Source: Escherichia phage vB_EcoM_EC001. Taken from it: 64,000 nt of DNA. Below the pieces are notes generated by a model, which was not told the origin of the DNA, did no database searches, and saw nothing but the letters and a program-made list of their open reading frames with translations. The stretch is taken from sequence record MN445185.1. The stretch is one strand, 5' to 3'. Positions 5,678 through 62,707 of this stretch are shown one piece after another. The translations under genes and the position numbers were made by a program. How positions within the stretch are numbered: position 1 is the stretch's first letter; the number at the start of each line of letters is the position of its first letter.

Positions 5678-6418
5678 ATGTTGCGAGTCGTGAGTGAATC
5701 GCTCACGCTCCACACACAAAGTCTGATTAACTGTGTGGAGCAATACGGATGGATGTCATGGATGGCAACGAACCGTGAGTTCGGTGCTGCGCCCATGGAA
5801 GATTACGACGTGTTGTACAAGTGGGGATTTGAAGCGGCTTGTGATGTTGTGGCAGAGCTGGTTACTGAAACAATTGCGCGTTACAATGCAAGATGTGATG
5901 AACCGATGCCTAAACAAGTCCCGCCGCAAATACCTCCGCTACCGACAATCGATCGTGAGCAGTGTCGAATCTGGACAATGGAAGAGTTGTACGACGAACA
6001 CGTTAGAATGCTGAAACCGAACGAGCTAATAACCGGTGCGTTGAACTGGTTCTTACATCGTTTCTGGACAGAGTTGGTCGATGTGGCGGGTGACGAAGAT
6101 AATTGTTCTCAGGTTATTTGGTACGATCGAGCGATGTTTCATCGCAGTCTTAAAGATCGCAGTCTCTGCAACCTGTATATTGTTGACCCGTGTGAAGACA
6201 TTGTAAGGGTGGCAGAAGGTAACTCTTATTCGGACTTGGTGATGCCTGTGGTAGAAAAACCGATGGGTATTTTCCTGCAGGGAGACGCTTGGGTTTTAAC
6301 GGATGATATCTCGGGCTACCTGCTGGACCCGGATGACATTCACTCGGACGAACCTGACACCATCGAGTATTTTCACTTTACAGAACAGGCAGCACGCTTC
6401 TTGCATCTCTTAAAGTAA
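5678..6418 (+). CDS. hypothetical protein (246 aa)
   Basis: ATG at 5678 with SD GAAGAGG, 1 nt after upstream stop; track ORF from 5618 overlaps the preceding gene. Confidence 0.6.
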   Translation: MLRVVSESLTLHTQSLINCVEQYGWMSWMATNREFGAAPMEDYDVLYKWGFEAACDVVAELVTETIARYNARCDEPMPKQVPPQIPPLPTIDREQCRIWTMEELYDEHVRMLKPNELITGALNWFLHRFWTELVDVAGDEDNCSQVIWYDRAMFHRSLKDRSLCNLYIVDPCEDIVRVAEGNSYSDLVMPVVEKPMGIFLQGDAWVLTDDISGYLLDPDDIHSDEPDTIEYFHFTEQAARFLHLLK

Positions 6419-6420
6419 TC

Positions 6421-6442
6421 TGAGATAGATATTATCTACAGG
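6421..6442 (+). promoter_or_regulatory. candidate phage promoter, AT-rich motif family A (TGAGATAGATATTATCTACAGG)
   Basis: Intergenic, ~30 nt upstream of the 6472 start; shares CTSAGAYAKATATTAYCT core with sites at 14950 and 46607. Confidence 0.4.
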
Positions 6443-6471
6443 GACGTAACCTTAAGGAGAATTTATTCACG

Positions 6472-7206
6472 ATGCTTAAAGTCGAAGTGCCAGTGCTTTT
6501 AAACCTCACGCCCCAGTTCTTTGAAGCGTTGTTCGAAAAGCATTGGCCCGCGTTCGCGAAGAACGAACTAAAGGATAACCCACAGTGGTATCCTCTGCGC
6601 GATGAATTCAAGTATACAGCCATCAACGTCTGTATAGAAGTCTTCACTGCGTGGTTACAAGAGATGTACGACTGCATCAACACCGAACGGCTGTTCACGC
6701 TAGAACATGTAGAGATTAATGTTGTTGACGTCTACGAAGGTTACTCCTACGAAGAAGGCATTACTGCCACGGGGTTAAGCCAGCAAGACGTTGAAGAACA
6801 AATCTTTGCGTGGATCGAGTGGTTCACGGAAAAGTTGATGCTGGCTGATTTTGTCACGCAGGTGGAAGATGTATTCATCCCAATGTACGAGCGGTTAGCT
6901 GAGATACGTCGTAACCATCGACTGCTCGGTTACTGGTATGACACTTATACCACCTCCTCAACACTGTGGTCTTCCGCTACTGCCGCTTTTGGCATAACTG
7001 AAGGCGATTACGATGTCGTTCATTCTGGCCCTTGGCAGTACGGTTTCGGCACACTGTGGCACGAACTGACCGATGTCATGTGTCTGGACTTTTATCTCTG
7101 TGAAGGTAAGTTTTACACGGATAACTGCGTGAGCCAAATTCCGAATGGTGCGACGGTGGTGATGTGTCGCATCCGTAAAGAAGTCTCTAAGAAACTAAAC
7201 TACTGA
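6472..7206 (+). CDS. hypothetical acidic protein (244 aa)
   Basis: Long ORF with SD AAGGAGA upstream. Confidence 0.6.
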   Translation: MLKVEVPVLLNLTPQFFEALFEKHWPAFAKNELKDNPQWYPLRDEFKYTAINVCIEVFTAWLQEMYDCINTERLFTLEHVEINVVDVYEGYSYEEGITATGLSQQDVEEQIFAWIEWFTEKLMLADFVTQVEDVFIPMYERLAEIRRNHRLLGYWYDTYTTSSTLWSSATAAFGITEGDYDVVHSGPWQYGFGTLWHELTDVMCLDFYLCEGKFYTDNCVSQIPNGATVVMCRIRKEVSKKLNY

Positions 7207-7591: not shown

Positions 7592-7601
7592 TGGGGGCGG
7601 T

Positions 7602-8009: not shown

Positions 8010-8019
8010 GGAGCATTAG

Positions 8020-8559
8020 ATGCAAATCGTAATTGACTTCGCTCTGTCGGAGTCGAGACGTCAGCTAGATGAAATTCTGTTAGGATTAAAACGTGACGTG
8101 GAATTTGAACTTCACGATGCGTTGGCCGTCCACGAAAATCGTTTGTCTGACGAAATAGGTTCGGGTGTAGATGTGACTATCTGTGACACTGGGGATATGG
8201 TAAATCAGCTTATTGAACGTATGTTCACGCGGCTGCGTAACATTCTGAACTATCCCCATCGTTTTGAACTGGTAGAAGGGACGGACCAAATCACCGACTT
8301 ATTGAGTGAAGCCTTTGATAAGGTCGGTGAGTCTCTGGCGGGGTTACATCAAGAGAACCTGGGCGAGACATACGTTGCTGTGGTCATTAACGGGCAATCA
8401 TCGAACGTCACGGACACGGTAACATGGTCTGATATCGTTGACCAGCCAATCATTGACAAAATCACCAAGTTGTATCGTGATGCGGAAATGAAGGTGCTGG
8501 CTATCTGTCGTCGTGAACTACTGTATCTCGGCGAGAAATATGGGAAACCTGCTGAATGA
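8020..8559 (+). CDS. hypothetical protein (179 aa)
   Basis: ORF with SD AAGGAG upstream. Confidence 0.6.
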   Translation: MQIVIDFALSESRRQLDEILLGLKRDVEFELHDALAVHENRLSDEIGSGVDVTICDTGDMVNQLIERMFTRLRNILNYPHRFELVEGTDQITDLLSEAFDKVGESLAGLHQENLGETYVAVVINGQSSNVTDTVTWSDIVDQPIIDKITKLYRDAEMKVLAICRRELLYLGEKYGKPAE

Positions 8560-9098
8560 AAATATTCATTGATTTACTCGATGACGAATTTCGCGAAATA
8601 TTTCCAGCGGCGTTGTTCGAGTTTAAACGCAAGTGTGAAGACTATCTAATACCGAAGAATATCGATCGTCAGCACCTCGCCGGGCTTATCTCTGCGGCGT
8701 ACGTCAACATCGCGGTAAATGAAGTTCATCAACTCGCCCAGCGTATTGCGTGTTTCGAATACAACGACGAAGACATTGAAGACGGCTTCCTGCAGTCTAA
8801 GATGGGTCGCTTCTCACTCGAACTCAAGACCGATGAAGTTATTGATAAGGTCGGTAAAGCGTTTGATGAAATGAAAGACATCGAAATGATGATTAAAATG
8901 TCTGGACCGGAAGCTGGGCCGTTGAAAGAAGCGTGGGAAAATCTCAACCGCGAAGGGTATAAAAAGATGTATATGGAGGAGTTCACCACTATGCTACGTC
9001 ATCTCGAAGCGCAGATCTGGGAGCATATCGTTTCACGTCTGAAAGAAATACTGATTGTGGTCGAACCAATGCAGCCCATCACTATTGGCAATTTCTAG
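8556..9098 (+). CDS. hypothetical protein (180 aa)
   Basis: ATGA start/stop overlap with upstream gene (translational coupling). Confidence 0.6.
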   Translation: MKIFIDLLDDEFREIFPAALFEFKRKCEDYLIPKNIDRQHLAGLISAAYVNIAVNEVHQLAQRIACFEYNDEDIEDGFLQSKMGRFSLELKTDEVIDKVGKAFDEMKDIEMMIKMSGPEAGPLKEAWENLNREGYKKMYMEEFTTMLRHLEAQIWEHIVSRLKEILIVVEPMQPITIGNF

Positions 9099-9102
9099 TT
9101 AA

Positions 9103-9135
9103 ACGGACACTCTTCGGGGTGTCCGTAGTTTTATT
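9103..9135 (+). terminator. rho-independent terminator
   Basis: Hairpin ACGGACAC..GTGTCCGT followed by T-rich tract. Confidence 0.65.
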
Positions 9136-9149
9136 TTAATCGACCATTA
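9136..9149 (+). promoter_or_regulatory. conserved 14-mer TTAATCGACCATTA (motif family B), candidate phage promoter or 5' leader element
   Basis: Exact 14-mer 17 nt upstream of ATG 9167; identical copies at 46667 and 47536, each 17-19 nt before a start codon. Confidence 0.45.
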
Positions 9150-9166
9150 ATCTAAAGGAGTATTAA

Positions 9167-10090
9167 ATGGACAGCTTTCTTTTTGATTTGGCAGAATCGG
9201 TAAATGTAGATGTAATCGGTATGCGCGAATCCCCGAGTAATTTCTTAAACGGTCTTACTAAAATCGACGAACGTGTGAAATCCAGAAGTGGAGATCCCGC
9301 CATCATCGAGCAATACGCAATAGCCCATTGTGGCGAGATAGGCCAGCACTTTATACCGATTGAGGCGTTCCTAAAGAACTGCTTCGCCGAAGAATGCACC
9401 GCAGACTTCCTGTCTCTTGCCTACGGCTGGCGATACGGGGGTATCCAAATGGAATTTGATCTTAATATTTTTGAACAAGTTCTACTTGGCGACGTTCTCA
9501 CTGAGATACCACGCAGCTGGATAGACAAGATTCCCGGTTGGGCCGTCTCCTTTTCAGTGTGCTATCGCGCTAAAGATATCGGTATCCAAGAAAAGACTTA
9601 CGTTTTCGGTCGGCGAATGTTTAAAGGGAAAGATTGTTTAACAATGATGATTTTTGGAAAACGTATCGAGGGGGAAACCTTTGAAATCGTGGACGTGGGT
9701 GACGGCTTTGTATCCTTGCGTGTGGCGGAAACTGGTACGCCGGCCAATGAGAAAACGTTACGCATTGTCGGCGCTACCATGTTTACATTCTCACTGATCC
9801 CGCACAACCCTACACCCGTCAAACTGAGACAATTAACTGGAAAGAAACGTATCGCCAATTACCACATTGAACCAAAATCTAAACCGACTGTCCTCTCCAC
9901 CGTAAAAGCACAAAGCGAGTATCTTGAAGAATTTGATACTGATACGGAGAAAAGAACACAAGGTAGCAGATGTGCGCATATGCGTCGTGCACACTGGTGT
10001 ACTTACTGGCTCGGTCCACGTGACGGGAATCGGACAAAGATTTTGAAATGGATACCGCCGACATTTGTCAACGGTTCTAAATGCAAATAA
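9167..10090 (+). CDS. hypothetical protein (307 aa)
   Basis: Long ORF with SD AAAGGAG upstream. Confidence 0.65.
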   Translation: MDSFLFDLAESVNVDVIGMRESPSNFLNGLTKIDERVKSRSGDPAIIEQYAIAHCGEIGQHFIPIEAFLKNCFAEECTADFLSLAYGWRYGGIQMEFDLNIFEQVLLGDVLTEIPRSWIDKIPGWAVSFSVCYRAKDIGIQEKTYVFGRRMFKGKDCLTMMIFGKRIEGETFEIVDVGDGFVSLRVAETGTPANEKTLRIVGATMFTFSLIPHNPTPVKLRQLTGKKRIANYHIEPKSKPTVLSTVKAQSEYLEEFDTDTEKRTQGSRCAHMRRAHWCTYWLGPRDGNRTKILKWIPPTFVNGSKCK

Positions 10091-10099
10091 AATAAAGCC

Positions 10100-10150
10100 T
10101 ACCCACTCCCCTTATGGGAGTGGGTAATGCTTATTTTTTTTTTATTTTTT
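10100..10150. terminator. bidirectional rho-independent terminator
   Basis: Stem TACCCACTCCC/GGGAGTGGGTA with long T-tract and upstream A-tract; stem nearly identical to the terminator at 281-318. Confidence 0.8.
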
Positions 10151-10897
10151 GTTTGCTTTCAGGGTCTTGAGGCGATCACCGGTTACGTTCAGGCATTCTG
10201 TCAGTTCATTAATCTGTTTCATAAACAGTCCGAACAGCTCAACCCAGTCAGCACCCATGTCAGCCATTTTCACTAACTCTGCCGCCACATTAGGATGGAC
10301 TTGTGAATTAGAGATAATGTCTACAGAGACGTTGATGCTTTCAACTGTACGGTCAATACTTTTCTGAAGTTTCTTAGTCACTTCCAGGTTCAGCGCTTTG
10401 GCACGATTAAATGCAACATCGATCTCGCCCGCGCTGTGGTAGGTCTTTTCAATCGGACGCTGGTCAATGACGTTGTTGGTATACGACTTCGCCAGTTTCT
10501 CAACCAGATCTTTTGGATTGATATTTTTCAGCGGGTAGTTCAGGTCTTTGAACTTAAACCCAATCGGCAGAGTTAACATGCCCAGGTCATGGGTCATCGC
10601 ACCGAAACGTTTATCGATGGGTGTTAAAACCCCTTCCTGAATCTTCTGGAGCACAGCCCATACAGATTCCAACCGTTCTATGTGGTCCATCACATACGTG
10701 TTGAAGCCCGGAGGTACGGGTACAAGCATTCCGGTAAAGTTTAAAAACTTCTCTTGCTGCATCCACTTGGACACATCAGACATGTCGTCATAGGTGGTCA
10801 GCGCGAGTTCCTGTTGAGAGCCGCTAAAGGCTTTAGGCAGAATCGTGGATGCTTTGGCAACAAAGCCCGACAACGCTGCAAGTGGATTAACATTCAT
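10142..10897 (-). CDS. hypothetical protein (251 aa), isolated reverse-strand gene
   Basis: Long ORF antisense to flanking + operons, with its own upstream intergenic region 10898-10995. Confidence 0.6.
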   Translation of the reverse strand: MNVNPLAALSGFVAKASTILPKAFSGSQQELALTTYDDMSDVSKWMQQEKFLNFTGMLVPVPPGFNTYVMDHIERLESVWAVLQKIQEGVLTPIDKRFGAMTHDLGMLTLPIGFKFKDLNYPLKNINPKDLVEKLAKSYTNNVIDQRPIEKTYHSAGEIDVAFNRAKALNLEVTKKLQKSIDRTVESINVSVDIISNSQVHPNVAAELVKMADMGADWVELFGLFMKQINELTECLNVTGDRLKTLKANKK

Positions 10898-10995
10898 TCT
10901 ATCAACCTCGAATATATAAGGGATTGGGCTACATAGTAAGTCTTTTACGTATCACCCAAACCTTATGTACGAGAACTGCATAAAGGTAACATCTG

Positions 10996-11295
10996 ATGAG
11001 AATCAAATTACTGACTCGCGCTTTAACCTCTCGTATCGAACCTGAGATTTACACCACCCCGACGAAGAAGAATACCGATGGTAGTCCGATCGTGGTTGGT
11101 AAAATCCTGAACGTGACCACTCGTGCTGATGGTCAGCGCGTTCTTGAAATCGAAATCGACGAACGTAACCGTAACCGCTTCAAAAGCATTTCTAACATCA
11201 ATCCTAAGGATGACAACCAAGTCACCGAGTGGGCAGAAGTGCATTTCGAAGTTTGGCATAAACGTCGTCTGTTACTCCCACTGAAAAAACGCTAA
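10996..11295 (+). CDS. hypothetical protein (99 aa)
   Basis: ORF immediately upstream of and co-oriented with the recombinase-like gene. Confidence 0.5.
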   Translation: MRIKLLTRALTSRIEPEIYTTPTKKNTDGSPIVVGKILNVTTRADGQRVLEIEIDERNRNRFKSISNINPKDDNQVTEWAEVHFEVWHKRRLLLPLKKR

Positions 11296-11310
11296 TTGAC
11301 GGAGCGCTAA

Positions 11311-12804
11311 ATGGCAGGTCCAGCTAAACAAGTCATGGGTGAAGTGATTCGCCCTCGTTTTAACGTATATACCATCATGGACCACGCTCTCGGTAACTAC
11401 GAGCGCGGGGAAGATGGTTTGTACTACCTCAACGGTGGTTTTGCCCACATCATGGGCTTCGCAGGTCGTGGGAACACCTTTAAGTCTACCTTATTAGACT
11501 TCTGCATTTTCATGATTCTGCAACGTTATAATGCGGCCTGGGGATCGAAATACGATACCGAAGTTACGGCAGCATTAAGTCGTCTGGAAACGGGGTATAT
11601 CTCCGCTGCGAAAGCAAACGGATTAGAAGTATCACCAACAGGCGGCGTGCTGGACCTGATCCACGAAGGTCGTTACAACATGGTTGGCTCGGATATCATG
11701 GCGGGTGAGGAGTATTACTCTGCTTATATCCGTGACGAAGTCGAAAAACGTTTCAAAGAGTACATGGCTGGTAAGGCACGCGAAACACCGTTCCCGGACC
11801 CAATCCGTCGCTCTGCGAAAAAGATTCTCGACCCGTGGTTGTACTCGATTGACTCCCTGTCCGAATGGCACACCTCTTCTCTGGAAGAGAAACATGCCAA
11901 ATCAGAAGTCGGTGATTCTGAACAGAACATCCTGAACGCCCACGATGCGTTGCAGAAATCGAACATGATGAGCCGTTGGCCGTCTGCGTTTGCGCGTGGT
12001 GGTTTCTATATGGGCTTCGTTGCTCAGTTGGCCGACGATGCGGGTAAAGCAATGGCGGCAGGTGGCCGTGGTGGACCGAAGGCGAACGGTAAACTGTTGG
12101 ACGATGCAGGCGATGATCTGAAGTTTGCGGGTATCCCGCGCCGTCAGTTGTCGTTCTTAACTAACTCCCTGCTGGTTGCAACCAAGTCTGGTGAGTTGAA
12201 GCAGGATCAGACTTACAACGCGAAGACCGGTGTAAACGAAGAGAAATACCCGACTGCGCGTTCGAAAGCAATGAATGCTTCGGTGAACGACCTGAAAGAA
12301 ATTGTTTTCACGCAGTACCGTGCGAAGGGTGGTCACACAGGCGTTAAGTTCAAAATGGTCTTCTCGCAGGAGATGGGTCTGCTTTATCACCTCTCTCTGT
12401 GGCATTACCTGAGCGACACACTGAAAGATGAATGGGGCTACAAACGTAGTGGTGCTAACTATACCCTCGATTTGCTACCTGGTACATCTTTCATGCGTAC
12501 CACGATTCGCGACATGTGTGACAGCAACCCGCGTTTGCGCCGTGCGTTGGAAATCACCGCCGCATTAGCGTACATGCAGAATAACTACCACCGACTGGAA
12601 ATGAAATACCATCTCTCACCGGCGGAGCTTTATAAAGTTATCGACGAAAAGTGGGACTGGAATGAAATTCTGGACAATACAGTGGAATACTGGATGTTCA
12701 AGGATCAGGAAGTCAAAGGTGGTAAGCGTTGCTTAACAGCAATGTCATTACTGGCGATGGCCGTGGATGGTCTGGAACCTAAGTTCTTGACTAAGAAGAA
12801 ATAA
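11311..12804 (+). CDS. putative RecA/UvsX-like recombinase ATPase (497 aa)
   Basis: GGFAHIMGFAGRGNTFKSTLLDFCIFMILQRY resembles the T4 UvsX P-loop region GGMQSGLLILAGPSKSFKSNFGLT..YMRQY (from memory), followed by KYDTE versus YDSE; no canonical GK[ST] and no clear Walker B. Confidence 0.35.
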   Translation: MAGPAKQVMGEVIRPRFNVYTIMDHALGNYERGEDGLYYLNGGFAHIMGFAGRGNTFKSTLLDFCIFMILQRYNAAWGSKYDTEVTAALSRLETGYISAAKANGLEVSPTGGVLDLIHEGRYNMVGSDIMAGEEYYSAYIRDEVEKRFKEYMAGKARETPFPDPIRRSAKKILDPWLYSIDSLSEWHTSSLEEKHAKSEVGDSEQNILNAHDALQKSNMMSRWPSAFARGGFYMGFVAQLADDAGKAMAAGGRGGPKANGKLLDDAGDDLKFAGIPRRQLSFLTNSLLVATKSGELKQDQTYNAKTGVNEEKYPTARSKAMNASVNDLKEIVFTQYRAKGGHTGVKFKMVFSQEMGLLYHLSLWHYLSDTLKDEWGYKRSGANYTLDLLPGTSFMRTTIRDMCDSNPRLRRALEITAALAYMQNNYHRLEMKYHLSPAELYKVIDEKWDWNEILDNTVEYWMFKDQEVKGGKRCLTAMSLLAMAVDGLEPKFLTKKK

Positions 12805-12807
12805 GCA

Positions 12808-12834
12808 TGGGCGGGGCAACCCGCCTGTTTTTTC
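12808..12834 (+). terminator. rho-independent terminator
   Basis: GGCGGGG-CAA-CCCGCC hairpin followed by TGTTTTTT. Confidence 0.7.
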
Positions 12835-12849
12835 CCCTGAGGATTAGCG

Positions 12850-13125
12850 ATGCGTTATCAGAAAGATATTGTAGAGCGTCTGTGTCTGGGTCTCGCTGGT
12901 ATTAGCCAGGAACTTAGCACCGCGTTCCATAACGAGTTCTCAGCACCGCGACATGCACTGTCTGAATTTAGTCATCAGGTAAATGCCCATTACGGCAACC
13001 TGATTAATGATAAACCGAAGGTTGATGCGGTCGGTGTGCCTGAACACAATGAAGATATCCCGTACTGGATTGAAGACCTGGAACGTGTGGTTCTTCCAGT
13101 GCTCCGTGAGAGGATGAAAAAATGA
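12850..13125 (+). CDS. hypothetical protein (91 aa)
   Basis: ORF with SD GAGGA upstream; coupled to next gene. Confidence 0.5.
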   Translation: MRYQKDIVERLCLGLAGISQELSTAFHNEFSAPRHALSEFSHQVNAHYGNLINDKPKVDAVGVPEHNEDIPYWIEDLERVVLPVLRERMKK

Positions 13126-13790
13126 GATTAGACCCGGCACGGCGAAAAAAAGCAGAAGCTTATGCTTTACAGTTACTGAACTTAGTTGACCCGACCGGGA
13201 TTAACGCGGAAGCTGCCAAGCGCGCTTTCTCACGAATGTCTGACGAAGAGTTCAATCGTCTGCGCGAAGGGTTGCCTGTTTACAACCCAACTGGCGGCAA
13301 GGTCAAAATTGACCATATGCGCAATATTAAAATTTGCGAAGCGATGGGACTGAGCTTGTGTCAGCGCCTGTGGCTCACGGAACCGAAAACCGGTATCCTA
13401 CAACGTACCCGTTACCCCCATTTAGTCTTCCGCCTGCCTGCACGTCGCCAGACGCAGATGCAAGAGAAGAAAATGGCGGTGGCGAAGAACGATAAAGTCC
13501 GCGATAAACTCTCAGGTCAGGTAGTAGGTCCTTCCAAAGCTTCGGGTGTTTCGTTTCCAGAAGCCTACATCATGTACTCGGATGGACACGACTCAACGCT
13601 CCAGGAGTTCCTGTGGGCGCGTGGTGGTAACGATACGTTACAACGTGCGTTCTATCAATCGCTACGGCAAACCGGTAAAGGTCGCATCAACCTGGAAGGG
13701 GCTGAGCGTACCAGTTCAAAAGCGCCGCGTACATGGTCTTCGTACTTTAAAGCAATGCACATCGGTAACAACTTAGGACGCCCGGAATGA
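13122..13790 (+). CDS. hypothetical protein (222 aa)
   Basis: ATGA overlap with upstream stop. Confidence 0.55.
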   Translation: MRLDPARRKKAEAYALQLLNLVDPTGINAEAAKRAFSRMSDEEFNRLREGLPVYNPTGGKVKIDHMRNIKICEAMGLSLCQRLWLTEPKTGILQRTRYPHLVFRLPARRQTQMQEKKMAVAKNDKVRDKLSGQVVGPSKASGVSFPEAYIMYSDGHDSTLQEFLWARGGNDTLQRAFYQSLRQTGKGRINLEGAERTSSKAPRTWSSYFKAMHIGNNLGRPE

Positions 13791-14515
13791 GATTAGGACG
13801 CCGTTTCTTAGTCGATATCGACACAATCTTCGATACACGAATTGGTTGGGCGAAAGTGTTGCAGCCTGATGTATTAGAGAAGCTTGATTTAGAAGTGTAT
13901 CGGATGCGGTTCACAGATGCGTGGGCCGAAGTGGTAGGAATTCAGGACTGGAATAAAAAGTTCGCGGAGCGTGATAAACGCGCGTTGCAGAACGCGCAGC
14001 CAACAGAAATGTTGCTTACGCTAAAGAACGAAGTACAGGCAATGTTAATGACGATACAGATGCACGCTCCTATCGAGCGACCTGTCTTAACGTTTAACCT
14101 GTGGCCATACGCTGATCTCGATGATGAAGAACGTCATGCGTTTTTGGAAGAACTGCGTTACTACTATAACGAAGTGCAAGTAGACGTCGTTGTTATTCCT
14201 CACAGCGATCTTACACCAGGGCGACTTGCTTCGGCGTGGGACGGTTGGATAATGTACGATTGGTATCCGTGGATAGAACAACACGCGAACCATTTCCAGA
14301 AACCGATTCCGGATTTTACGATTACCCGACCGAGTATGCTGACCAGCGAATTAACGGAAGAAGCAATCGCGCAAATAAAAAGAGATAAGGTGAACCCCTT
14401 TAAGGAGTCCACCCGTTTTCTTGCTCAATACGTCGGTACTGACGTAAAGGACACTGCGCTGTTTAGTCTTCGTCGTCATCAGCAGGACGACGACTCGCAA
14501 ACGCAGACGCCATGA
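13787..14515 (+). CDS. hypothetical protein (242 aa)
   Basis: ATGA overlap with upstream stop; 3' end overlaps the convergent ORF 14463..14933. Confidence 0.55.
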   Translation: MRLGRRFLVDIDTIFDTRIGWAKVLQPDVLEKLDLEVYRMRFTDAWAEVVGIQDWNKKFAERDKRALQNAQPTEMLLTLKNEVQAMLMTIQMHAPIERPVLTFNLWPYADLDDEERHAFLEELRYYYNEVQVDVVVIPHSDLTPGRLASAWDGWIMYDWYPWIEQHANHFQKPIPDFTITRPSMLTSELTEEAIAQIKRDKVNPFKESTRFLAQYVGTDVKDTALFSLRRHQQDDDSQTQTP

Positions 14516-14933
14516 TCTGGTCAACGTCAATCTTTTCGCCTACTGGTGCCAACTCACCTTCTTTCGGAGGCCGTACTGCGGCAATCTGTGGGACGGTGGG
14601 TTGGTATCCGTTATTTAAATCTTCTTCATCGTCGTGACGTTTGATACCAACGCCTGCACGAGTCATTAAGAAGCCGTTTAAACTGTTGGCCAAATCTTGA
14701 GTCGCCTCAGCGCCTTTCTCAGCAGCTTTAATTTTCCGCTTCGTCATGACCTGTTTGTCGATGCCGTTGATTAGGCGTTCGATTCGGTCGACGGCTTTTA
14801 AGTCTTTGTGTACTTCACCGTCGTTCACCATATCTGTGACGAGCTTAACGCGTAGCTGTTGTGTTTGGCGGAGAAGCGAATCTTCGTTGTCCACATCTCC
14901 GTCGAACGCTTGGTATTTCACTTCTTCGCTCAT
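14463..14933 (-). CDS. hypothetical acidic protein (156 aa) with acidic C-terminal tail (ADDDED)
   Basis: ORF on minus strand; overlaps the 3' end of the + gene by ~50 nt, so one of the two ends may be mis-set. Confidence 0.45.
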   Translation of the reverse strand: MSEEVKYQAFDGDVDNEDSLLRQTQQLRVKLVTDMVNDGEVHKDLKAVDRIERLINGIDKQVMTKRKIKAAEKGAEATQDLANSLNGFLMTRAGVGIKRHDDEEDLNNGYQPTVPQIAAVRPPKEGELAPVGEKIDVDQIMASAFASRRPADDDED

Positions 14934-14949
14934 GGGATAACCTCATCTC

Positions 14950-14979
14950 AAAAAGAACTCAGACAGATATTATCTATCC
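14950..14979 (+). promoter_or_regulatory. candidate phage promoter, AT-rich motif family A (AAAAAGAACTCAGACAGATATTATCTATCC)
   Basis: In divergent intergenic region, ~30 nt upstream of the 15010 start; near-identical to the 46607 site. Confidence 0.45.
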
Positions 14980-15009
14980 GAGACAACATCTCATAATAGG
15001 ATAACACCT

Positions 15010-15540
15010 ATGCTTTTTAAATGGCTTTCAACACTCCTGCGTCGTAAGGCTGTAGAAGCTCGCAGACGCTCTTTGGAGGCTGAGTTTCATAAGAATACCC
15101 ATAACACCCTGCACAGAGTGATGGTGGGCTTAGAACTCATTACAGAGCCTCTGGAATATAATGGGAAAGAATACCTTCCTTTTTCATTACGTGGACAACT
15201 CGAATTACGTATTCGAGATTTTGACACGTTGGTGGAGCGATTGGAATTCTTCATTTCTGAGTATAACCGTGTATCCAGTAGCAACATTCCCAATCAACGT
15301 TGGTTAGAGTTGCCTGAGGCAATCGATAGAAAAGGAGAGAGTTCAGAACCACGATGGCTTGATCATTATTTCGGTGCATCCGATCCTGAAGTCGCGCGCG
15401 ATAAACTGCGCACAGTCTTCGCTATGTTAGAACTGTATCAGCGTGCATTTGATAAACAAACACCCGAACAGGATACGCTGTTTAATCAAACCGCACATAT
15501 CTTCCGCGAGTTAGAAGTGATAGTGGAACACTATCTCTAA
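15010..15540 (+). CDS. hypothetical protein (176 aa)
   Basis: First gene of a 5-gene + operon. Confidence 0.55.
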   Translation: MLFKWLSTLLRRKAVEARRRSLEAEFHKNTHNTLHRVMVGLELITEPLEYNGKEYLPFSLRGQLELRIRDFDTLVERLEFFISEYNRVSSSNIPNQRWLELPEAIDRKGESSEPRWLDHYFGASDPEVARDKLRTVFAMLELYQRAFDKQTPEQDTLFNQTAHIFRELEVIVEHYL

Positions 15541-15573
15541 CTTTTAATCTATTCCCTTGTAACAAGGTGATGT

Positions 15574-16452
15574 ATGGATGATGAGAAAAAGCCGCCGCTG
15601 AATAGCACACGCGAGCAAATTTGGCACGGTACGCCACCGGCGTCAGATTCCAGCTACCCGTTAAGGAAAGCTTATTGGAATCTGGTTAAGTTGATGGGTA
15701 TTAGCGACGGGATATGGAAAGACCTTATCCGTCAACATGTCAACGACCCGGAGTATCTGAAACAGTTTCGTGACAGCAAACTGACCACGATGACCGACCG
15801 CGTTAACCGGCTGAACACCTCACTTACGGGTGGTTCGGTACGTAACCTGACAGTCGATTTTACGTGGAAACGTTTCATCGAGGGATTAGTTATCCTGGAG
15901 ATGCAAACGCTAACAGTCACCCTGCTGACTAAGCGGGGAAGCTTTGACACGAAGTGTTTTGTATTCGACAGTACGTTTGTGCGTGAGGACTTCATTAAGA
16001 ACTTACGTAATGAGAACAGGAAGAAGCGTAAAGAGCGTTTCGAGCATCCCGCATCTTACGACGTTAACGAGTATGTCGCGAACATCGACCACACTATCGA
16101 ACATGTGATGAAGCACATTCTCCTGCGTTTAATCTACAAAGTTATTCGTGGGTATAAAATCGATGGTGATAAACTGGAACGGTGGACGACGAACTACGTC
16201 AACAACCCTAAGTTGTGCCCAGGCACATCATCCAAACGTGGGGACAGACGAAACAACATGAAACAGGCGATGCGTCACACCGAGGCAATCACCTGGCGTT
16301 GGTTTCTAATAATCTTACAAGCGCTGGACGTACGTGAGTTCGAAATCACTTTCAAAGTTCGCCATCGTAGTGGTAGAGAATATGAGGTCAGCGACAACGT
16401 TCCGTTAGCGACGTATAGATTCTGGAGTTCCAATGAAACTGAACAACCTTGA
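15574..16452 (+). CDS. hypothetical protein (292 aa)
   Basis: Long ORF. Confidence 0.6.
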   Translation: MDDEKKPPLNSTREQIWHGTPPASDSSYPLRKAYWNLVKLMGISDGIWKDLIRQHVNDPEYLKQFRDSKLTTMTDRVNRLNTSLTGGSVRNLTVDFTWKRFIEGLVILEMQTLTVTLLTKRGSFDTKCFVFDSTFVREDFIKNLRNENRKKRKERFEHPASYDVNEYVANIDHTIEHVMKHILLRLIYKVIRGYKIDGDKLERWTTNYVNNPKLCPGTSSKRGDRRNNMKQAMRHTEAITWRWFLIILQALDVREFEITFKVRHRSGREYEVSDNVPLATYRFWSSNETEQP

Positions 16453-17707
16453 TGGGATTACCAACCAGATAAGCAACACAACGGGCGCAATAGAGAACAA
16501 AGTTAACGATGTTCAAAACCGTGTCCAGTCAACGATTGGTAATGCCGAGCGCGGTATTGAAAGTGCTCAAAATTTGTACAATAACGTAACCGCCAAAGCA
16601 GGGGAAACTTTCGACAAGATCTCCAACATTGGCAACACGATAAGTGAGAAATTTGGTAACGTGTTCGGGGGTGGCGACCAAGTCACGGTAGGTGGTAAAA
16701 AGGCAGCAGGTTCAGCGGCTTCCGGAGTATCGCCGCCACAACGTGTGCCTACTTTTGCTTCCAACACGAAAGAAGCGCTGCCAGTTATCGATCCACAGAA
16801 GCGCGATGTGTCCGAACCCTTTCAGAAGGTAAACCAGGAAGGGAAAACTGCACTGAGCTATCTCTCACCGGGCGGCGCAGGTAGTCTGTTAAGTAAGGGA
16901 TGGGATACACTGACTGATCTTCGCGATAGCGCTTTAAGCGCGGTCGGGACAGATTATGCGTCAGTGAAAGCTCGCCTGGAGTCCACGATGAACATCGCGG
17001 GACAGCTTGCCAAACTGCCGGGTGAGGTACAGCGTGAAATCGGTAACTACGTCGATATGGCCAATAGCGCCAAGTGGCAAGTCACCGCACTGATTGACGA
17101 TGTTACGCACACGTTTGATAGCTTTAAGGACCTGGACGACTTCTTGTCTATCGACGGGATCATTGATAGCTTTACGGGCGGGAGTGGGAATTTCTCCTCG
17201 CTGGATATCAACACCTCGTCTGCATTGATATACGGTATGTCCACAAAGCTCAATCAATACGGTCTGCCGAATCGCATCGATCCGATGATTCAGGCTATCA
17301 CCGATCCTATTGCACAACAAGCGTTGTACGGCGAACTGATGATACAGGCTGCGGCGTCGGGTAATCTCAATTCTGTTGAGTATTACTTGCCTAAACTACA
17401 GCCAGGCCAAGGTGCTGAGATTGCAGATACTGTTATTCAGAATCTTCTGATGAACCTTAACGTTGAGCCGGGGGTGGGTTACAGCACCTACGGTCAGCGA
17501 CTGCTGACGTTGTTTAAAGCGCTTAATCCAAACTGGGATATCTCTAAAACGAATCCTGGAATGGTTGAGCTTAAGCTTTACACATACGCCAACAGTAATG
17601 CGATTCAAGCACTCCTGACCACCGAGAAACGTCCGTACGTTATCGCCGGTGGTAGTGTCCAATATCAGTCTGCCAGTACGCTGGTGCAGAGCTATTTCGC
17701 CTTGTAA
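16433..17707 (+). CDS. hypothetical Asn/Gly/Ser-rich protein (424 aa)
   Basis: Long ORF; 20-nt overlap with upstream gene, SD TGGAG. Confidence 0.6.
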   Translation: MKLNNLDGITNQISNTTGAIENKVNDVQNRVQSTIGNAERGIESAQNLYNNVTAKAGETFDKISNIGNTISEKFGNVFGGGDQVTVGGKKAAGSAASGVSPPQRVPTFASNTKEALPVIDPQKRDVSEPFQKVNQEGKTALSYLSPGGAGSLLSKGWDTLTDLRDSALSAVGTDYASVKARLESTMNIAGQLAKLPGEVQREIGNYVDMANSAKWQVTALIDDVTHTFDSFKDLDDFLSIDGIIDSFTGGSGNFSSLDINTSSALIYGMSTKLNQYGLPNRIDPMIQAITDPIAQQALYGELMIQAAASGNLNSVEYYLPKLQPGQGAEIADTVIQNLLMNLNVEPGVGYSTYGQRLLTLFKALNPNWDISKTNPGMVELKLYTYANSNAIQALLTTEKRPYVIAGGSVQYQSASTLVQSYFAL

Positions 17708-17716
17708 GGTACCTCT

Positions 17717-18568
17717 ATGTCGAAAGATGAAGGTAAGTTTTTGCGTAGTGCGTTGGAACGTCTACGTGTCGATGGTGCATCGGTGGATGCTTTGGCGGCT
17801 GCTTTTGGGTTTACGTTGCCCGCCTCGGTAGAAGCCACATATCCTGTTTTACGTCCCATCCTACCACCAGAAGAAAAGGAAGCCTTTGTACGCTATTTAC
17901 TGCGTATGGGTTACCAGAGTACCTTGGTGGATATCACGCCGTCTACAGACGGTCTGAATCACTTCAACATCTATTCGCAGGGGCGAACTGAGATAGGTCG
18001 GATGGCGAGTAACTTCTATGCTCGCCCTGGTGAGTATTTTGTTACCCCCCACGGACCTTTCCGGACGCTCGAAGGTTATTATCATTACCTGCGTATTCTG
18101 GATTACTTAATGCGTGAAATTGATAACCGCACTTTGGTGATGGAATTTGATATCATGCGACAGGCAGTGAACACCTGGCCTGATATTGAGAAGTTGCGTG
18201 CACTAGATGGCACCGACTGTATCCGGCTAGGTCGTAATCTGAAAGCGGAAATCTACGGAGGAACCAGTTATAAGCCCGGTTCATTTACCCCGGTTACAGA
18301 AAGCCGTTTTATCCATGCGCTGGTAAATAAACTCTTTATACTGTCGGTCGACGGGACATCGTTAGGTAATGTATTTGCAGAGATTCTGCGAGCACGTATC
18401 CCGCTTAAGCATTATTACATGATGCAAGGGCGTAAGATATTCCCAGCACACTGGGACTGGCTACCAAATCTGATTGAGATGATAGCTGAACATATCGATC
18501 CTGAGGACAGTACGTTTGATCGAACCGAACTTTTGAAGAAACTAGGAATCGATGATGGGACTATTTGA
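17717..18568 (+). CDS. hypothetical protein (283 aa)
   Basis: Long ORF. Confidence 0.6.
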   Translation: MSKDEGKFLRSALERLRVDGASVDALAAAFGFTLPASVEATYPVLRPILPPEEKEAFVRYLLRMGYQSTLVDITPSTDGLNHFNIYSQGRTEIGRMASNFYARPGEYFVTPHGPFRTLEGYYHYLRILDYLMREIDNRTLVMEFDIMRQAVNTWPDIEKLRALDGTDCIRLGRNLKAEIYGGTSYKPGSFTPVTESRFIHALVNKLFILSVDGTSLGNVFAEILRARIPLKHYYMMQGRKIFPAHWDWLPNLIEMIAEHIDPEDSTFDRTELLKKLGIDDGTI

Positions 18569-19214
18569 TATTCTCAAAAACTTAGACGAGCAGCAGGAAA
18601 AAGAAGTCATTACTGTTGCGCGTGAGTCCATCTCTACGGAGAAGGAACGTGAGTATTGCATGTGGGTTAAGCCCACTGAAGAAGGTTGGCAATGGCTGTT
18701 TGGTCAGACAGGCGAAACCTTCCTGGATGTCATTATGCCGGTCCTTAACGGCAAACGTCGTGTGCGGTTGTCCACCGATAAAACTGCGGTCTTAACGTTA
18801 AAACGACAAGCATCTGATGGTCGTATCGAAGAGAACTCGGATATCGGGTTTGCCTCGGGTCTGACCTTCTACGAAGATGGCAATCTTGCACATCTCGTGC
18901 GTCGTATCAAACTCGAACCAGGTGAACTGGCAGAGCAAGGTGCGAAGCATTGGGATATCGACTTGTTCTTTAAACTGGCAGGTCACCCAGTTATCGAATC
19001 GCAGGCAGGTTTCGAAGACCTTGTCAACGAACTGCGCGACTCCACGACATTCGGCGAGTGGGTAAAAGTCGAACTGGAAGTTGAGCGATTTGAGCTGACG
19101 TCTATCAAGGACGTATTGCCGTTTGCAGTAGAAGACGCTATTCCAGGCAACCCGTCGGATGCGGAGTCCCAGTTAGTTATTTCGAACTACTGGGATAATG
19201 AAACCCGCATCTAA
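18552..19214 (+). CDS. hypothetical protein (220 aa)
   Basis: Long ORF overlapping upstream stop. Confidence 0.6.
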   Translation: MMGLFDILKNLDEQQEKEVITVARESISTEKEREYCMWVKPTEEGWQWLFGQTGETFLDVIMPVLNGKRRVRLSTDKTAVLTLKRQASDGRIEENSDIGFASGLTFYEDGNLAHLVRRIKLEPGELAEQGAKHWDIDLFFKLAGHPVIESQAGFEDLVNELRDSTTFGEWVKVELEVERFELTSIKDVLPFAVEDAIPGNPSDAESQLVISNYWDNETRI

Positions 19215-19218
19215 GTCG

Positions 19219-19255
19219 TGCCCTCTCCTTCGGGAGAGGGTATCTTTATTTTTTA
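19219..19255 (+). terminator. rho-independent terminator
   Basis: CCCTCTCC-TTCG-GGAGAGGG hairpin plus T-tract. Confidence 0.8.
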
Positions 19256-19272
19256 TCTTAAGGAGTATGTAA

Positions 19273-19635
19273 ATGCAAATCGGCTTCTTCTTTAATCGTC
19301 ACGGAATCGTGTTTGTTTGTGGTGTTCCGGATAGTGACGGGAGACGTGTACGCACGTTAGAACTCGACGAAACATCTATGGTCGAGTGGAAAGAGAAACT
19401 TGCTCCCTTCGCAGAAGGTAAGTTTCAACTGCTGCAGCTCTACACGCAAGCTGCATCACCACGCGTTGCTTTCTCCCGACTTGGAGACGGCGAAGACACC
19501 ACACATCTGGTTATCTTCAGTGGGCAGCCTGGTCGTGTATTGAGCGAATTATTGATGGGATTCAATCCGCCTAGCAAGCCCAGGATGAATACGTACAATG
19601 TGCACGACAGTAGCCAAATTCTTATTCTTCGATAA
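19273..19635 (+). CDS. hypothetical protein (120 aa)
   Basis: ORF with SD AAGGAG upstream. Confidence 0.5.
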   Translation: MQIGFFFNRHGIVFVCGVPDSDGRRVRTLELDETSMVEWKEKLAPFAEGKFQLLQLYTQAASPRVAFSRLGDGEDTTHLVIFSGQPGRVLSELLMGFNPPSKPRMNTYNVHDSSQILILR

Positions 19636-19683
19636 TTTACGGCCACGGCTGTACGTATGTAAAAGACCTCAAGGAGAACTATA

Positions 19684-20103
19684 ATGAACAATATCGCGTT
19701 TGAAAAAGGCGTTGGGTTACTTCTGAACAACACCATCGTCGCTGGCACTAATAACGCTAACTGGGAAGCGTTAGCGCAACGTCTCAAAGACAAGCCTGTG
19801 AAGATTGTGGTAACGAGCGAGCTGCCGTTAAACGGCACGATGGCGGACTGTGGTCCAATGTTTGCGGCGTTTAACATCGACTATGATTGCGGTTCCGCTT
19901 TCTTACAAAACGCCGCGTTACGTAGCCGTCTGTACAGCTGGCGTTTGCTGGGTCCGGTAAGTAAAGCCGCAGGTCAAATGGTTAACCAGGGCACACCGAT
20001 GTCGGGTGTAGAAGACCAGACTATCGCCGTTGTCGTTTCTCGCGCAACCGGCCAGCTTAACTTTGCAATCTGCTACGCGTATCAGGAGGAAGAGTATGCT
20101 TAG
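19684..20103 (+). CDS. hypothetical protein (139 aa)
   Basis: ORF with SD AAGGAGA upstream. Confidence 0.5.
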   Translation: MNNIAFEKGVGLLLNNTIVAGTNNANWEALAQRLKDKPVKIVVTSELPLNGTMADCGPMFAAFNIDYDCGSAFLQNAALRSRLYSWRLLGPVSKAAGQMVNQGTPMSGVEDQTIAVVVSRATGQLNFAICYAYQEEEYA

Positions 20104-43358: not shown

Positions 43359-44087
43359 GTGGTCGTGAGCGCCATTGAAACAGCACGTCGTGACGCGACG
43401 AAAATTCATGCAGATTTAGTGGACCAAGGCACGGCCACCATCACCAAAGGGGGATGTTACATTTACATCCCTGTTGGCTTCGTGGCTAAAGAGCTGGCGG
43501 TAATTTCTTCGCAAGTCGAAATCGTCGGCATTTTCGCTATCTCCACTGACCGCAAAACCTACGGGGTATCGAACGTCACGACGTTCATTGAAATTACCCC
43601 GTCGGCGTTTGAGGAAATTGATGTTCAGGGTGTGCCGTATTACGAGTTCCGTTTTGACCCCGGCACGGTGGTGTTCCCCAACCGAATGCTGCAAGTGCTC
43701 TCCTCGCCAGTCTACAACATCGCTTCGTACATCTACGACTTCGGAAACCGGCCTTTCTGGTACACCGCAGTAGATGACGCTGAGCTATTGTCTGACACTA
43801 AGACGTGGAACGGCTTTACGGTCTTTAACGACCAGATCACCGCTGACTGTTATGCTGCCCACACACAGCGTAAGGTTGGCGACCCGCGGACGTATTTCCG
43901 CTACACCCTGAAAAAAGACAGCGATTTGATGAATCGGGTGCAGTTTATTCCGCTGCGTTCAGGTTCATTGAACAAAACTTCCCGGTTGGCCAAGATTGCA
44001 GATGTGGAACTGAAACAGGGTATCCGTTCTGCACTCCAGGTCGATCCGGTACGTGCAGAGCCACTCGAGGATTTGTATATGAGGTAA
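43359..44087 (+). CDS. hypothetical protein (242 aa)
   Basis: Long ORF. Confidence 0.55.
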   Translation: MVVSAIETARRDATKIHADLVDQGTATITKGGCYIYIPVGFVAKELAVISSQVEIVGIFAISTDRKTYGVSNVTTFIEITPSAFEEIDVQGVPYYEFRFDPGTVVFPNRMLQVLSSPVYNIASYIYDFGNRPFWYTAVDDAELLSDTKTWNGFTVFNDQITADCYAAHTQRKVGDPRTYFRYTLKKDSDLMNRVQFIPLRSGSLNKTSRLAKIADVELKQGIRSALQVDPVRAEPLEDLYMR

Positions 44088-46543: not shown

Positions 46544-46553
46544 GCTCCACTAG

Positions 46554-46596
46554 GCTCATCCTATCTTCGGATACGGGTGAGTCTTTTTATTTTATT
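46554..46596 (+). terminator. rho-independent terminator
   Basis: CTCATCCTATC-TTCG-GATACGGGTGAG hairpin (one G-U pair) followed by T-tract. Confidence 0.7.
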
Positions 46597-46606: not shown

Positions 46607-46635
46607 AAAAAGAACTGAGATATATATTACTTAGG
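46607..46635 (+). promoter_or_regulatory. candidate phage promoter, AT-rich motif family A (AAAAAGAACTGAGATATATATTACTTAGG)
   Basis: Intergenic; contains TATATTAC; same architecture as the 14950 site. Confidence 0.45.
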
Positions 46636-46666
46636 TGAGCGTTACACGTTAACGCTTTAATCGACC

Positions 46667-46680
46667 ATTACCCAGAAGGA
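46667..46680 (+). promoter_or_regulatory. conserved 14-mer TTAATCGACCATTA (motif family B)
   Basis: Exact copy 19 nt upstream of ATG 46690 (via SD AGAAGGAG). Confidence 0.45.
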
Positions 46681-46689: not shown

Positions 46690-47088
46690 ATGACTAACCA
46701 ACTACGCCAAGACCCGTTTGTTGCCATGATGCTTTGTGCTAAAGCCGAGAGCAACGAAGCCGATTTAATTCGTCTGTTGACTGATGACGAATACCTTATC
46801 GCTGAGCGCGATAAACGTTTAAAAGAACTCTACAAGCCAGAAACCGGTGAATCGCTCGACAATCAAGACGCCTGGAAGTTTCTTATTCTCATTGCTGATG
46901 AAAAGTGGCGAGCAGAAAATCCCATCGTCTGTGATATTACAGACCTACCGTACAAATACGGCGGACTCATCACCAGCGACCTGCATCTTAAAGCGTACTT
47001 TGATGGCGAAGCAATACAAGAGCTGCAAGATGTTCTTATTACAGCAACGAACACTTTGAGACGTTTGCGCGCTGAGCAGCTGATCTGA
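46690..47088 (+). CDS. hypothetical protein (132 aa)
   Basis: ORF with strong SD; preceded by the family B motif. Confidence 0.55.
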   Translation: MTNQLRQDPFVAMMLCAKAESNEADLIRLLTDDEYLIAERDKRLKELYKPETGESLDNQDAWKFLILIADEKWRAENPIVCDITDLPYKYGGLITSDLHLKAYFDGEAIQELQDVLITATNTLRRLRAEQLI

Positions 47089-61501: not shown

Positions 61502-61525
61502 GGCGCTAAACCTCTAAAAATTTAC

Positions 61526-61549
61526 GGATATATGTTATCATACTGAGAG
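61526..61549 (-). promoter_or_regulatory. candidate promoter for the minus-strand gene (inverted family A-like AT-rich motif)
   Basis: Minus-strand reading CTCAGTATGATAACATATATCC resembles CTCAGACAGATATTATCTATCC at 14950; lies upstream of the 61501 start. Confidence 0.3.
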
Positions 61550-61573
61550 TATACCTGAAGGAGATTTTACCCA

Positions 61574-62707
61574 ATGATGAACTATGAACGTAAGCACGCG
61601 TGGCAAGAAAAGCTACGCACGGGGCAGATACATTCTGCCCAACAAGTGAAGATGTGGGTGCTGCCGCACGGCGTCATCTGCGAAACAGTCCAGGTCGGAG
61701 GATTACCTATTCTTCGAAATGGTAAATACGATTCGATGAACACGGTACTCGCACGCTTGCTGGCCGATGCAGGCATAATGGGTACCGTGATTTTATATTC
61801 AACCGCAACGATTCCTCAGAACCTTTCTCGCTGGTTAACACATTGGCTTTCCAATGACCCTAGCGAGGACGATCCTTGGCTACGTTCGATGACAGTGACA
61901 ACAATGGGTCAACGGCCGACGAAACCCCTCCCATTCCAGGTCAATGTAATTGAACCAGCTATTCTGGAAGCGGGTGAAGTGTTTGAAGCAATCAAACATC
62001 GATCTCGCGATGTTAGCATCAGTCAGTTTCTTATCGAAGCGAATGATGTGACTTACCGGCTGGAGCCTGTACGACGTATGGACGCTCGTATCGTCGACTG
62101 CACAGAGTTTGGGTATGTCTTGCGCACACAGGGCAACCACACGTTCCTGGCATCGATGCTTTCTCGCCGCGTGCAGGGACAATTAGCACACTACAAAGTG
62201 TCCCCTGCTGACCTCGTCGGTACCGACGTTAAGGTCGAATACACAATGTTTACCGAAGGGAATAGACTGTGTAATTTTAAGTCTCCGGTAGTCTATCGGA
62301 GTAAGGCACTTGATGCCTTAGGCGACCAGAATGTCCCGACATACGATGGCCCCTATCCGTTTAAATCGCAAGCATCTGCAAACCGTGCGCTCCTTACGGT
62401 AACTCGGTGTAAACGCGCAGCGATCACACTGACCGACGGGGAAATCTATGGTAAGGACACTGAGTCTGACGCAAAACTCTTTTCGTTCCGGCGTGGTGTA
62501 AAACCTGGATTGTATGCCGCAACGTTTGAAAAGGGGGATGACGTCGAGTTCTGGCAGTTCGACAGTGATTTTGCGGTAGATGCAATAGACCCAGAAGCGT
62601 TAGTGAGTGTCATCACAGACCAAATCTTTTACGCGACGGGTATGAGCCTGCTGGAAATCTTTTTAATGTACGATGCCAGATTACCTTCACAGTCAGTCAA
62701 AACGTAA
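61574..62707 (+). CDS. hypothetical protein (377 aa)
   Basis: Long ORF with SD GAAGGAG upstream. Confidence 0.6.
   Translation: MMNYERKHAWQEKLRTGQIHSAQQVKMWVLPHGVICETVQVGGLPILRNGKYDSMNTVLARLLADAGIMGTVILYSTATIPQNLSRWLTHWLSNDPSEDDPWLRSMTVTTMGQRPTKPLPFQVNVIEPAILEAGEVFEAIKHRSRDVSISQFLIEANDVTYRLEPVRRMDARIVDCTEFGYVLRTQGNHTFLASMLSRRVQGQLAHYKVSPADLVGTDVKVEYTMFTEGNRLCNFKSPVVYRSKALDALGDQNVPTYDGPYPFKSQASANRALLTVTRCKRAAITLTDGEIYGKDTESDAKLFSFRRGVKPGLYAATFEKGDDVEFWQFDSDFAVDAIDPEALVSVITDQIFYATGMSLLEIFLMYDARLPSQSVKT

Follow-up and report, generated by a model that had tools for sequence, protein, structure and literature searches.

The AT-rich sequence at 14950-14979 of the DNA of Escherichia phage vB_EcoM_EC001 (record MN445185.1) lies in an intergenic region, and sequences resembling it occur elsewhere in the same 64,000-nucleotide stretch, the whole of which is here called the window. 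This locus raises the question of whether such sequences form a family of early promoters and, if so, which RNA polymerase (RNAP) would read them. The initial annotation had placed related copies at 14950, 46607 and 6421, and all three were confirmed in place: the 16-nt pattern GAGAYAKATATTAYYT, with two or fewer mismatches allowed, matched the window three times (at 6422, 14960 and 46617), always on the plus strand, against 0.27 matches expected, and none of 100 shuffles reached three matches.

Megablast of window positions 14000-20000 gave full-length matches of 97.6-98.5% identity to the Salmonella phage SPN3US and its close relatives (SPLA3, the SPFM phages, SEGD1 and Lh1B), so that, to judge from this identity, the window is approximately the last 64 kb of an SPN3US-like Seoulvirus jumbo phage genome. 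The complete annotated SPN3US record was used for genome-wide counts. Its protein accessions supplied the gp numbers, and for gp218, gp240, gp241 and gp244 the lengths are consistent with Thomas et al. 2016 (PMC5105663). We also observed that the window carries a 307-aa ORF (9167-10090, about 980 bp of extra sequence) between the gp214 and gp215 homologues; it is absent from SPN3US and present in Erwinia phage Asesino (gp235), and a terminator (9103-9126) and a copy of the TCGACYATTA box described below lie upstream of it.

The window was then scanned with a held-out matrix, for which only the 19 SPN3US sites lying outside the corresponding region had been used. The four best matches began at 61515, 46607, 6412 and 14950, all on the plus strand and scoring 32.1-36.5 bits; after these came the reverse complement of the 14950 site at 19.2 bits, and the next match reached 4.9 bits. 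The best of 200 windows simulated with a first-order Markov model scored 16.2 bits with the same matrix. In matrix scans of the window, none of the genes for the virion polymerase, sheath, terminase or tail fibres was preceded by the motif. The sites at 14950, 46607, 6412 and 61515 are referred to below as sites 1 to 4.

Site 1 (14950..14985 on the plus strand, a frame from -30 to +6, with the invariant G of the profile taken as +1) has the core AGACAGATATTATCT at 14961-14975; transcription is predicted to start at G 14980, which would give a 30-nt leader before the ATG at 15010, and the held-out score was 32.1 bits. Site 2 (46607..46642, plus strand) contains the exact phiKZ-type core TATATTAC at 46623-46630, with a predicted start at G 46637, a 53-nt leader, an ATG at 46690 and a held-out score of 35.2 bits. 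In site 3 (6412..6447, plus strand), the core AGATAGATATTATCT occupies 6423-6437, and a 30-nt leader would run from the predicted start at G 6442 to the ATG at 6472 (34.5 bits with the held-out matrix). Site 4 (61515..61550) is a weaker yet clear member in direct orientation on the plus strand, with the core GGATATATGTTATCA at 61526-61540, a predicted start at G 61545 and an ATG at 61574 after a 29-nt leader; it scored 36.5 bits with the held-out matrix and 42.1 bits with the SPN3US matrix. Sites 1 and 3 read GATATTAT, site 4 reads TATGTTAT, and site 2 is TATATTAC exactly. The +1 positions were placed from the TATATTAC-N5-TG spacing common to phiKZ and from reviews that put the centre of the motif at about -10. 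On the SPN3US genome, the predicted starts of sites 1 to 4 correspond to 191621, 223296, 184063 and 238200, respectively.

All four sites are followed by plus-strand genes of unknown function. The first gene after site 1 (15010..15540) encodes a gp221 homologue (phrog_8650) and heads a plus-strand array that includes thymidylate synthase and MazG; the gp249 homologue after site 2 (46690..47088; phrog_27024) belongs to an array including an HD-domain protein; and sites 3 and 4 precede the homologues of gp209 (6472..7206; phrog_8219) and gp263 (61574..62707; phrog_8136), respectively. Pfam gave no match for these four genes or for the two divergent genes, and only PHROG families of unknown function were recorded.

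The initial annotation had put the motif about 30-60 nt upstream of the genes, in good agreement with the 30-55 nt that separate the motif end from the start codon. It had also read 61526-61549 as an inverted copy serving a minus-strand gene. That site, however, aligns directly with the others, column for column; the held-out matrix scan of the window found no minus-strand match at site 4, and the gene it would serve is not the minus-strand gene but the plus-strand gene 61574-62707, the predicted +1 lying 29 nt upstream of its ATG. The further proposal that the downstream genes are operon-initial held for sites 1 and 4, which sit in divergent gaps, and for site 2, which is preceded by a terminator-like hairpin; it may or may not hold for site 3, which begins 4 nt past the stop of the co-directional gene before it, where no terminator was seen. 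Likewise, the proposed 5' consensus AAAAAGAACT fits sites 1 and 2 only and not the family, which reads A-W-n-W-n-n-TTT-C. As a separate observation, site 1 (14955-14990) is a near-perfect 25-bp palindrome whose reverse complement scored 19-27 bits, keeps the GATAATAT-N5-TGAG spacing on the minus strand and is located 27 nt ahead of the ATG with which the divergent gene 14463-14933 (minus strand) begins; the minus strand of site 1 could be a candidate weak divergent promoter.

The SPN3US genome carries 23 such sites, scoring 35-57 bits, all on the plus strand and each co-oriented with the next gene. The intergenic enrichment anticipated by the initial annotation was borne out by this genome-wide matrix scan: the 15-nt core is fully intergenic in 21 of the 23 sites, against a background of 6.4% intergenic DNA in the genome (binomial P = 1.7e-23), and two sites overlap annotated coding sequence. 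Sorted by gap type, the sites occupy 14 of 92 '++' gaps and five of 15 divergent '-+' gaps, and none is found in convergent or '--' gaps; for 21 sites the distance from the predicted +1 to the ATG is 26-135 nt. The consensus is A(-29)W..TTTCAGATAKATATTAYYT..GTG(+1)A. Its 5' part consists of an A at -29 (23/23), a T-rich stretch from -23 to -21, C at -20 and AGATA from -19 to -15; the core has K at -14, ATATTA at -13 to -8, invariant or nearly so among the 23 SPN3US sites, and YYT at -7 to -5; and the 3' part comprises G/T at -2/-1, G at +1 (23/23) and A at +2. The information content of the family is about 40 bits over 35 bp, compared with the roughly 14 bits needed to specify 23 sites, a value typical of the promoters of a dedicated phage polymerase. 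Two subclasses can be distinguished, GATATTATCT (sites 1 and 3) and TATATTACYT (site 2). A dyad with a 6-bp stem and a 3-nt loop, starting at -19, is present in the GATATTATCT subclass at eight of the 23 sites; neither the TATATTAC subclass, to which site 2 belongs, nor the phiKZ sites have it.

Conservation was followed at sites 1-3, the region covered by the cross-genus comparison, in the syntenic 50 kb of Asesino and phiEaH2 (Erskinevirus), Huxley (Machinavirus), Kwan (Wellingtonvirus) and SPAsTU (a divergent Seoulvirus); around site 1, their identity to the window is about 70-82%. In these five phages, of four other genera or lineages, the motif is kept at all 15 orthologous positions, with scores of 25.8-40.6 bits. 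The majority fraction in the alignments of sites 1-3 is 0.85-0.95 for core columns versus 0.57-0.61 for distant flanks, and at site 3 the coding sequence before the motif has diverged among the genera, but the core has not changed. In passing, we noticed that the phiEaH2 CDS G173_gp142 (12984-13877 of the compared segment) spans both the conserved promoter (13293) and the region where the relatives carry a divergent minus-strand gene; its start is probably mis-annotated, with the true start near 13350.

As far as sequence comparison can tell, the motif is the SPN3US-group version of the known phiKZ-type (Chimalliviridae) early promoter and thus an element of a known kind. Predicted early promoters of Klebsiella phage N1M2, Pseudomonas phage OBP, 201phi2-1, EL and phiKZ have been tabulated together, with the phiKZ promoter given as TATATTAC and long, near-identical consensuses listed for OBP, N1M2 and 201phi2-1 (PMC7058600). 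The SPN3US profile aligned without gaps over about 35 nt with the consensuses of N1M2 (TBYAWWWWWTTTCARRYAKATATTATYWAAGTGWA) and OBP (BSHAWWWWWTTTYARRYAKATATTATYWWADTG) from that table (PMC7058600), and agreed with them at every conserved position. The 31 N1M2 sites likewise include sites upstream of an RNAP subunit gene and of a transglycosylase gene (PMC7058600); OBP and N1M2 differ in genus and host, and their sites, too, are bioinformatic predictions. No other source in the phage literature was found to contain the SPN3US-type core string, and no SPN3US-group sites were found in print in the open literature, a search that did not extend to Lavysh 2016, the paper likeliest to show them.

A comparison with phiKZ itself led to the same assignment. 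In the first 50 kb of phiKZ, all seven copies of TATATTAC are on the plus strand, each just upstream of an annotated plus-strand gene start, and their shared flanks consist of an A-tract, TTT, RAGAT and TATATTAC-N5-TG. The resemblance to phiKZ-like early promoters that the initial annotation had proposed for the window sequences is therefore well founded, given the TATATTAC entry in the PMC7058600 table, its exact occurrence at site 2 and the flanks common to phiKZ; the N5-TG spacing, the T-run, the A-tract, the plus-strand location and the intergenic placement are the same in both groups. They differ in that most SPN3US-group sites are GATATTATCT and that the upstream CAGATA is more strongly conserved in the SPN3US group. 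Start sites have been measured in phiKZ, where 28-32 early promoters of the TATATTAC class were mapped by primer extension, dRNA-seq and ONT-cappable-seq, whereas those of the SPN3US group are only predicted. One of the seven phiKZ copies lies upstream of PHIKZ054; the SPN3US matrix gave this promoter 28.7 bits, and dRNA-seq located the early-promoter motif at a primary start site of the gene (PMC8244752). The early motif has been described as having further conserved T-rich and A-rich elements near -20 and -30 (PMC8244752, PMC11512511), which are matched in the SPN3US sites by the T-run from -23 to -21 and the invariant A at -29. According to reviews, the motif is centred at about -10 and proved to be an early promoter wherever transcripts were profiled (PMC7598289, PMC11512511, PMC13282480), and such a motif can be found in every RNAP-encoding jumbo phage (PMC7598289, PMC13282480).

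Other systems show partial likeness. The early promoters of AR9 and 201phi2-1, which belong to the virion RNAP class, are also AT-rich and highly conserved, lie about 10 bp upstream of the start, and were found by over-representation and confirmed by transcript mapping; the AR9 consensus is, however, a different sequence in a genome that contains uracil, and only six sites were recovered experimentally in 201phi2-1. As would be the case in the SPN3US group, the early promoters of phage N4 are read by an injected polymerase, and some members of the SPN3US family could, as single-stranded DNA, fold into a 6-bp stem closed by a 3-nt loop; the N4 enzyme, however, is a single-subunit, T7-like polymerase, and the hairpin is not class-wide in the SPN3US/phiKZ family.

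The window encodes homologues of four of the five virion RNAP subunits. The SPN3US enzyme, which is packaged in the head, consists of five pieces, gp240, gp241, gp218, gp42 and gp244, and mass spectrometry placed gp218, gp240, gp241 and gp244 in the virion (PMC5105663). In the window, the gene for gp218, the C-terminal part of the beta subunit, is at 13122..13790, and those for gp240 and gp241 are at 35699-37312 and 37331-41536, with no motif upstream of the latter pair; these assignments, all on the plus strand, follow annotation and PMC5105663. A small protein annotated as a virion structural protein, gp244 (43359..44087, plus strand), has been proposed to be the C-terminal beta' piece of the virion RNAP (PMC5105663, PMC7598289). 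Outside the window, an SPN3US motif copy precedes the genes of the non-virion polymerase at gp34/gp35, where gp35 is the non-virion beta' subunit (PMC5105663), and two copies lie upstream of gp22-gp23. The non-virion polymerase subunit gp55 of phiKZ has a homologue in SPN3US gp23 (E = 8e-43), and this homology makes gp22-gp23 syntenic with phiKZ gp54-gp55, in which the gp54 promoter is an experimentally supported early promoter. Any link of gp22 to phiKZ gp54 would be only through the synteny of gp23 with gp55. We considered gp22 as a nuclear-shell protein but do not propose it: BLASTP against phiKZ gp54 gave E = 0.67, and there was neither a Pfam match nor a PDB relative.

Given this kinship and gene content, the four sites are very probably phiKZ-type early promoters read by the injected virion RNAP. 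We infer the start points, the early timing and the identity of the polymerase from motif homology and gene context. The five-piece virion polymerase is presumed, by comparison with related phages, to be injected with the DNA, and would recognise the asymmetric element of about 35 bp with neither host polymerase nor a sigma factor, through the invariant A at -29, the T-run from -23 to -21, the core CAGATAKATATTAYYT at -20 to -5 and the G at +1. Rightward transcription would then proceed from the G residues at 14980, 46637, 6442 and 61545 into operons whose functions are mostly unknown or in nucleotide metabolism. The same element upstream of the genes of the second, non-virion polymerase may allow expression of that enzyme, which would take over later.

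The core contains TATTAT positioned like a bacterial -10 element, and one could envisage that host RNAP transcribes from these sites as sigma-70 promoters, with TATTAT or TATTAC as the -10 hexamer and the A-tract as an UP-like element. TATTAY at -12 to -7 does agree with TATAAT at five of six positions in 16 of the 23 sites; such a -10-like element would, however, be expected of either reader, the phage RNAP being distantly related to the bacterial enzyme. A sigma-70 scan called none of the four plus-strand sites, a -35 match is absent, with no TTGACA pattern at -35 to -30, and sigma-70-like matches fell below the shuffle expectation both in window 1-20000 (22 vs 26.1) and in 44001-64000 (14 vs 23.4). 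Moreover, the conservation amounts to some 40 bits across 35 bp and extends to positions that sigma-70 does not read, and the same motif is present in phages of Salmonella, Erwinia, Klebsiella and Pseudomonas; the long conserved span and the spread across hosts favour a phage-intrinsic reader. Early transcription in phiKZ and AR9 is, in addition, independent of host RNAP (PMC7598289, PMC13282480), and we consider transcription of these sites by the host enzyme very unlikely.

The symmetry of some sites brings up another reading, in which the outer arms AGATA-N5-TATCT would be an operator bound by a dimeric phage regulator that switches operons on or off, one example being gp101, an HTH protein with the motif at its own gene. 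The dyad in eight sites of the GATATTATCT subclass, the near-perfect 25-bp palindrome at site 1 and the 19-27 bits still scored by the reverse complement of that site are what one would expect of such an operator. Yet the dyad is lacking in the TATATTAC subclass (including site 2) and in all phiKZ sites, the flanks are strongly asymmetric, with A-29 and the T-run upstream and G+1/A+2 downstream, and each of the 23 sites points the same way with respect to the gene that follows. We give this explanation little credence; an overlapping repressor may exist, but it would complement the promoter reading, not supersede it.

A third possibility is that the sites are middle or late promoters of the non-virion polymerase rather than promoters of the injected enzyme. 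The early timing in SPN3US-like phages is a prediction, and some downstream arrays hold a virion protein gene: the gp214 homologue downstream of site 3 encodes a head protein (PMC5105663), so the downstream arrays are not purely early in function. Nevertheless, the motif precedes the genes of the non-virion polymerase itself, and something already present at injection must transcribe these; the motif is also an exact match to the phiKZ early class, and unlike both the late promoters of phiKZ, which have only TATG at the start, and its middle promoters, which have a weak AT-rich/TACT element near -22 to -24. A middle or late role for the sites is accordingly improbable in our judgement. DNA-hairpin promoters of the N4 type, with their obligatory stem of 5-7 bp and 3-nt loop, were rejected as an explanation for the whole class, the dyad being present in only 8/23 sites and absent from the TATATTAC subclass and from phiKZ.

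With the sites taken as early promoters of the phiKZ type, the leaders that they would produce were examined for structure by folding each sequence separately and by counting stem starts. Just before site 2, a GC-rich hairpin followed by a T-run (46552..46595, plus strand; -18.3 kcal/mol, z = -4.3) was more stable than any of 200 shuffles, and its stem sequence varies between genera with the pairing kept; this terminator-like hairpin may end the upstream transcription unit. At site 2 itself, the hairpin GAGCGTTA-cacgt-TAACGCTT (46637..46657, plus strand) has an 8-bp stem beginning at the base predicted to be transcribed first. The site 1 transcript would carry at its 5' end a small, weakly supported hairpin, GAGA-caaca-TCTC (14980..14992, plus strand; leader -7.1 kcal/mol, z = -4.1), whose GAGA...TCTC is kept in four of five relatives, that of Kwan being divergent, with no covariation. 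Among the 23 SPN3US leaders, the first 30 nt or so of 12 fold more stably than shuffles (z < -1.5), and about 9-10 have an uninterrupted stem of 6 bp or more that begins no more than a few bases from the predicted +1; leaders of this kind include those at SPN3US 4446, 56313, 65432, 92559, 94258, 114005, 161938, 165706 and 223296. The stem sequences differ from site to site, and the feature looks like a 5'-terminal stem-loop on early mRNAs. RNAalifold predicted no structure for ten leaders, which is explained by loop lengths that push the 3' arms out of register, and no Rfam family was detected in the window. That hairpins begin at or near the predicted +1 in roughly ten leaders provides a further basis for the placement of +1.

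The leader of site 2 also contains AATCGACCAT (46659..46668, plus strand, 31 nt before the ATG), a member of a recurrent TCGACYATTA box. The box has the pattern [AT][ATC][TC]CGAC[CT]AT(TA), usually followed by TAAYCTWAAGGAGTATT and ATG; at least 14 plus-strand start codons have it 20-41 nt before them, in most cases at 28-31 nt, and a matrix of the box gave 18 plus-strand matches versus one on the minus strand. Copies are found at 9138-9147, 46659-46668 and 47538-47547 of the window and at 57146, 65455, 94280, 114030, 167592, 224197 and other positions of SPN3US. Half of the boxes are inside early-promoter leaders, in many of which the box comes after the stem-loop that starts at the predicted transcript 5' end, and the others stand alone, some of them right after a terminator (window 9138 and 47538). 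The box upstream of the HD-domain gene is kept in three relatives. We suggest, only tentatively, that the box may be an undescribed second cis-element, either a promoter for another polymerase or a translation or RNA-handling signal of nucleus-forming phages.

Several other elements were observed alongside. A terminator hairpin, the T-run TTTTTT(C)ACG, N16-19 and then TATG or TATA form a recurrent pattern, seen in the window at 3391-3442 (SPN3US 181012; also 5493, 11491, 72635, 95793 and 168841); 16 of the 20 plus-strand matches to TTTTT[CT]?ACG are intergenic, and three matches are on the minus strand. This pattern is a candidate class of middle or late promoters like those of phiKZ. AGTATGA occurs twice upstream of the tail-sheath gene (52531-52640, minus strand) and once upstream of the minus-strand gene 60125-61501 (within 61502-61573), where it overlaps site 4, which lies on the other strand. 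AGTATGA is reminiscent of the TATG start motif of phiKZ late promoters, a 4-mer too short to assess. Terminator-like hairpins are enriched in window 1-20000 (33 vs 19.0 expected), and several are bidirectional, e.g., those at 10100-10127 and 49560-49585.

These results leave the current understanding unchanged, since reviews already expect a motif of this kind in every RNAP-encoding jumbo phage. What the motif offers is a map of the likely early regulon, comprising 23 SPN3US transcription units, four of them in the window, in a phage that serves as a genetic model for nucleus-forming jumbo phages and most of whose early genes have no assigned function. The motif is nearly identical in phiKZ, in OBP and in the phages of Salmonella and Erwinia, which points to strongly conserved promoter recognition by the injected polymerase, and with recognition so conserved, one matrix can predict early genes family-wide.
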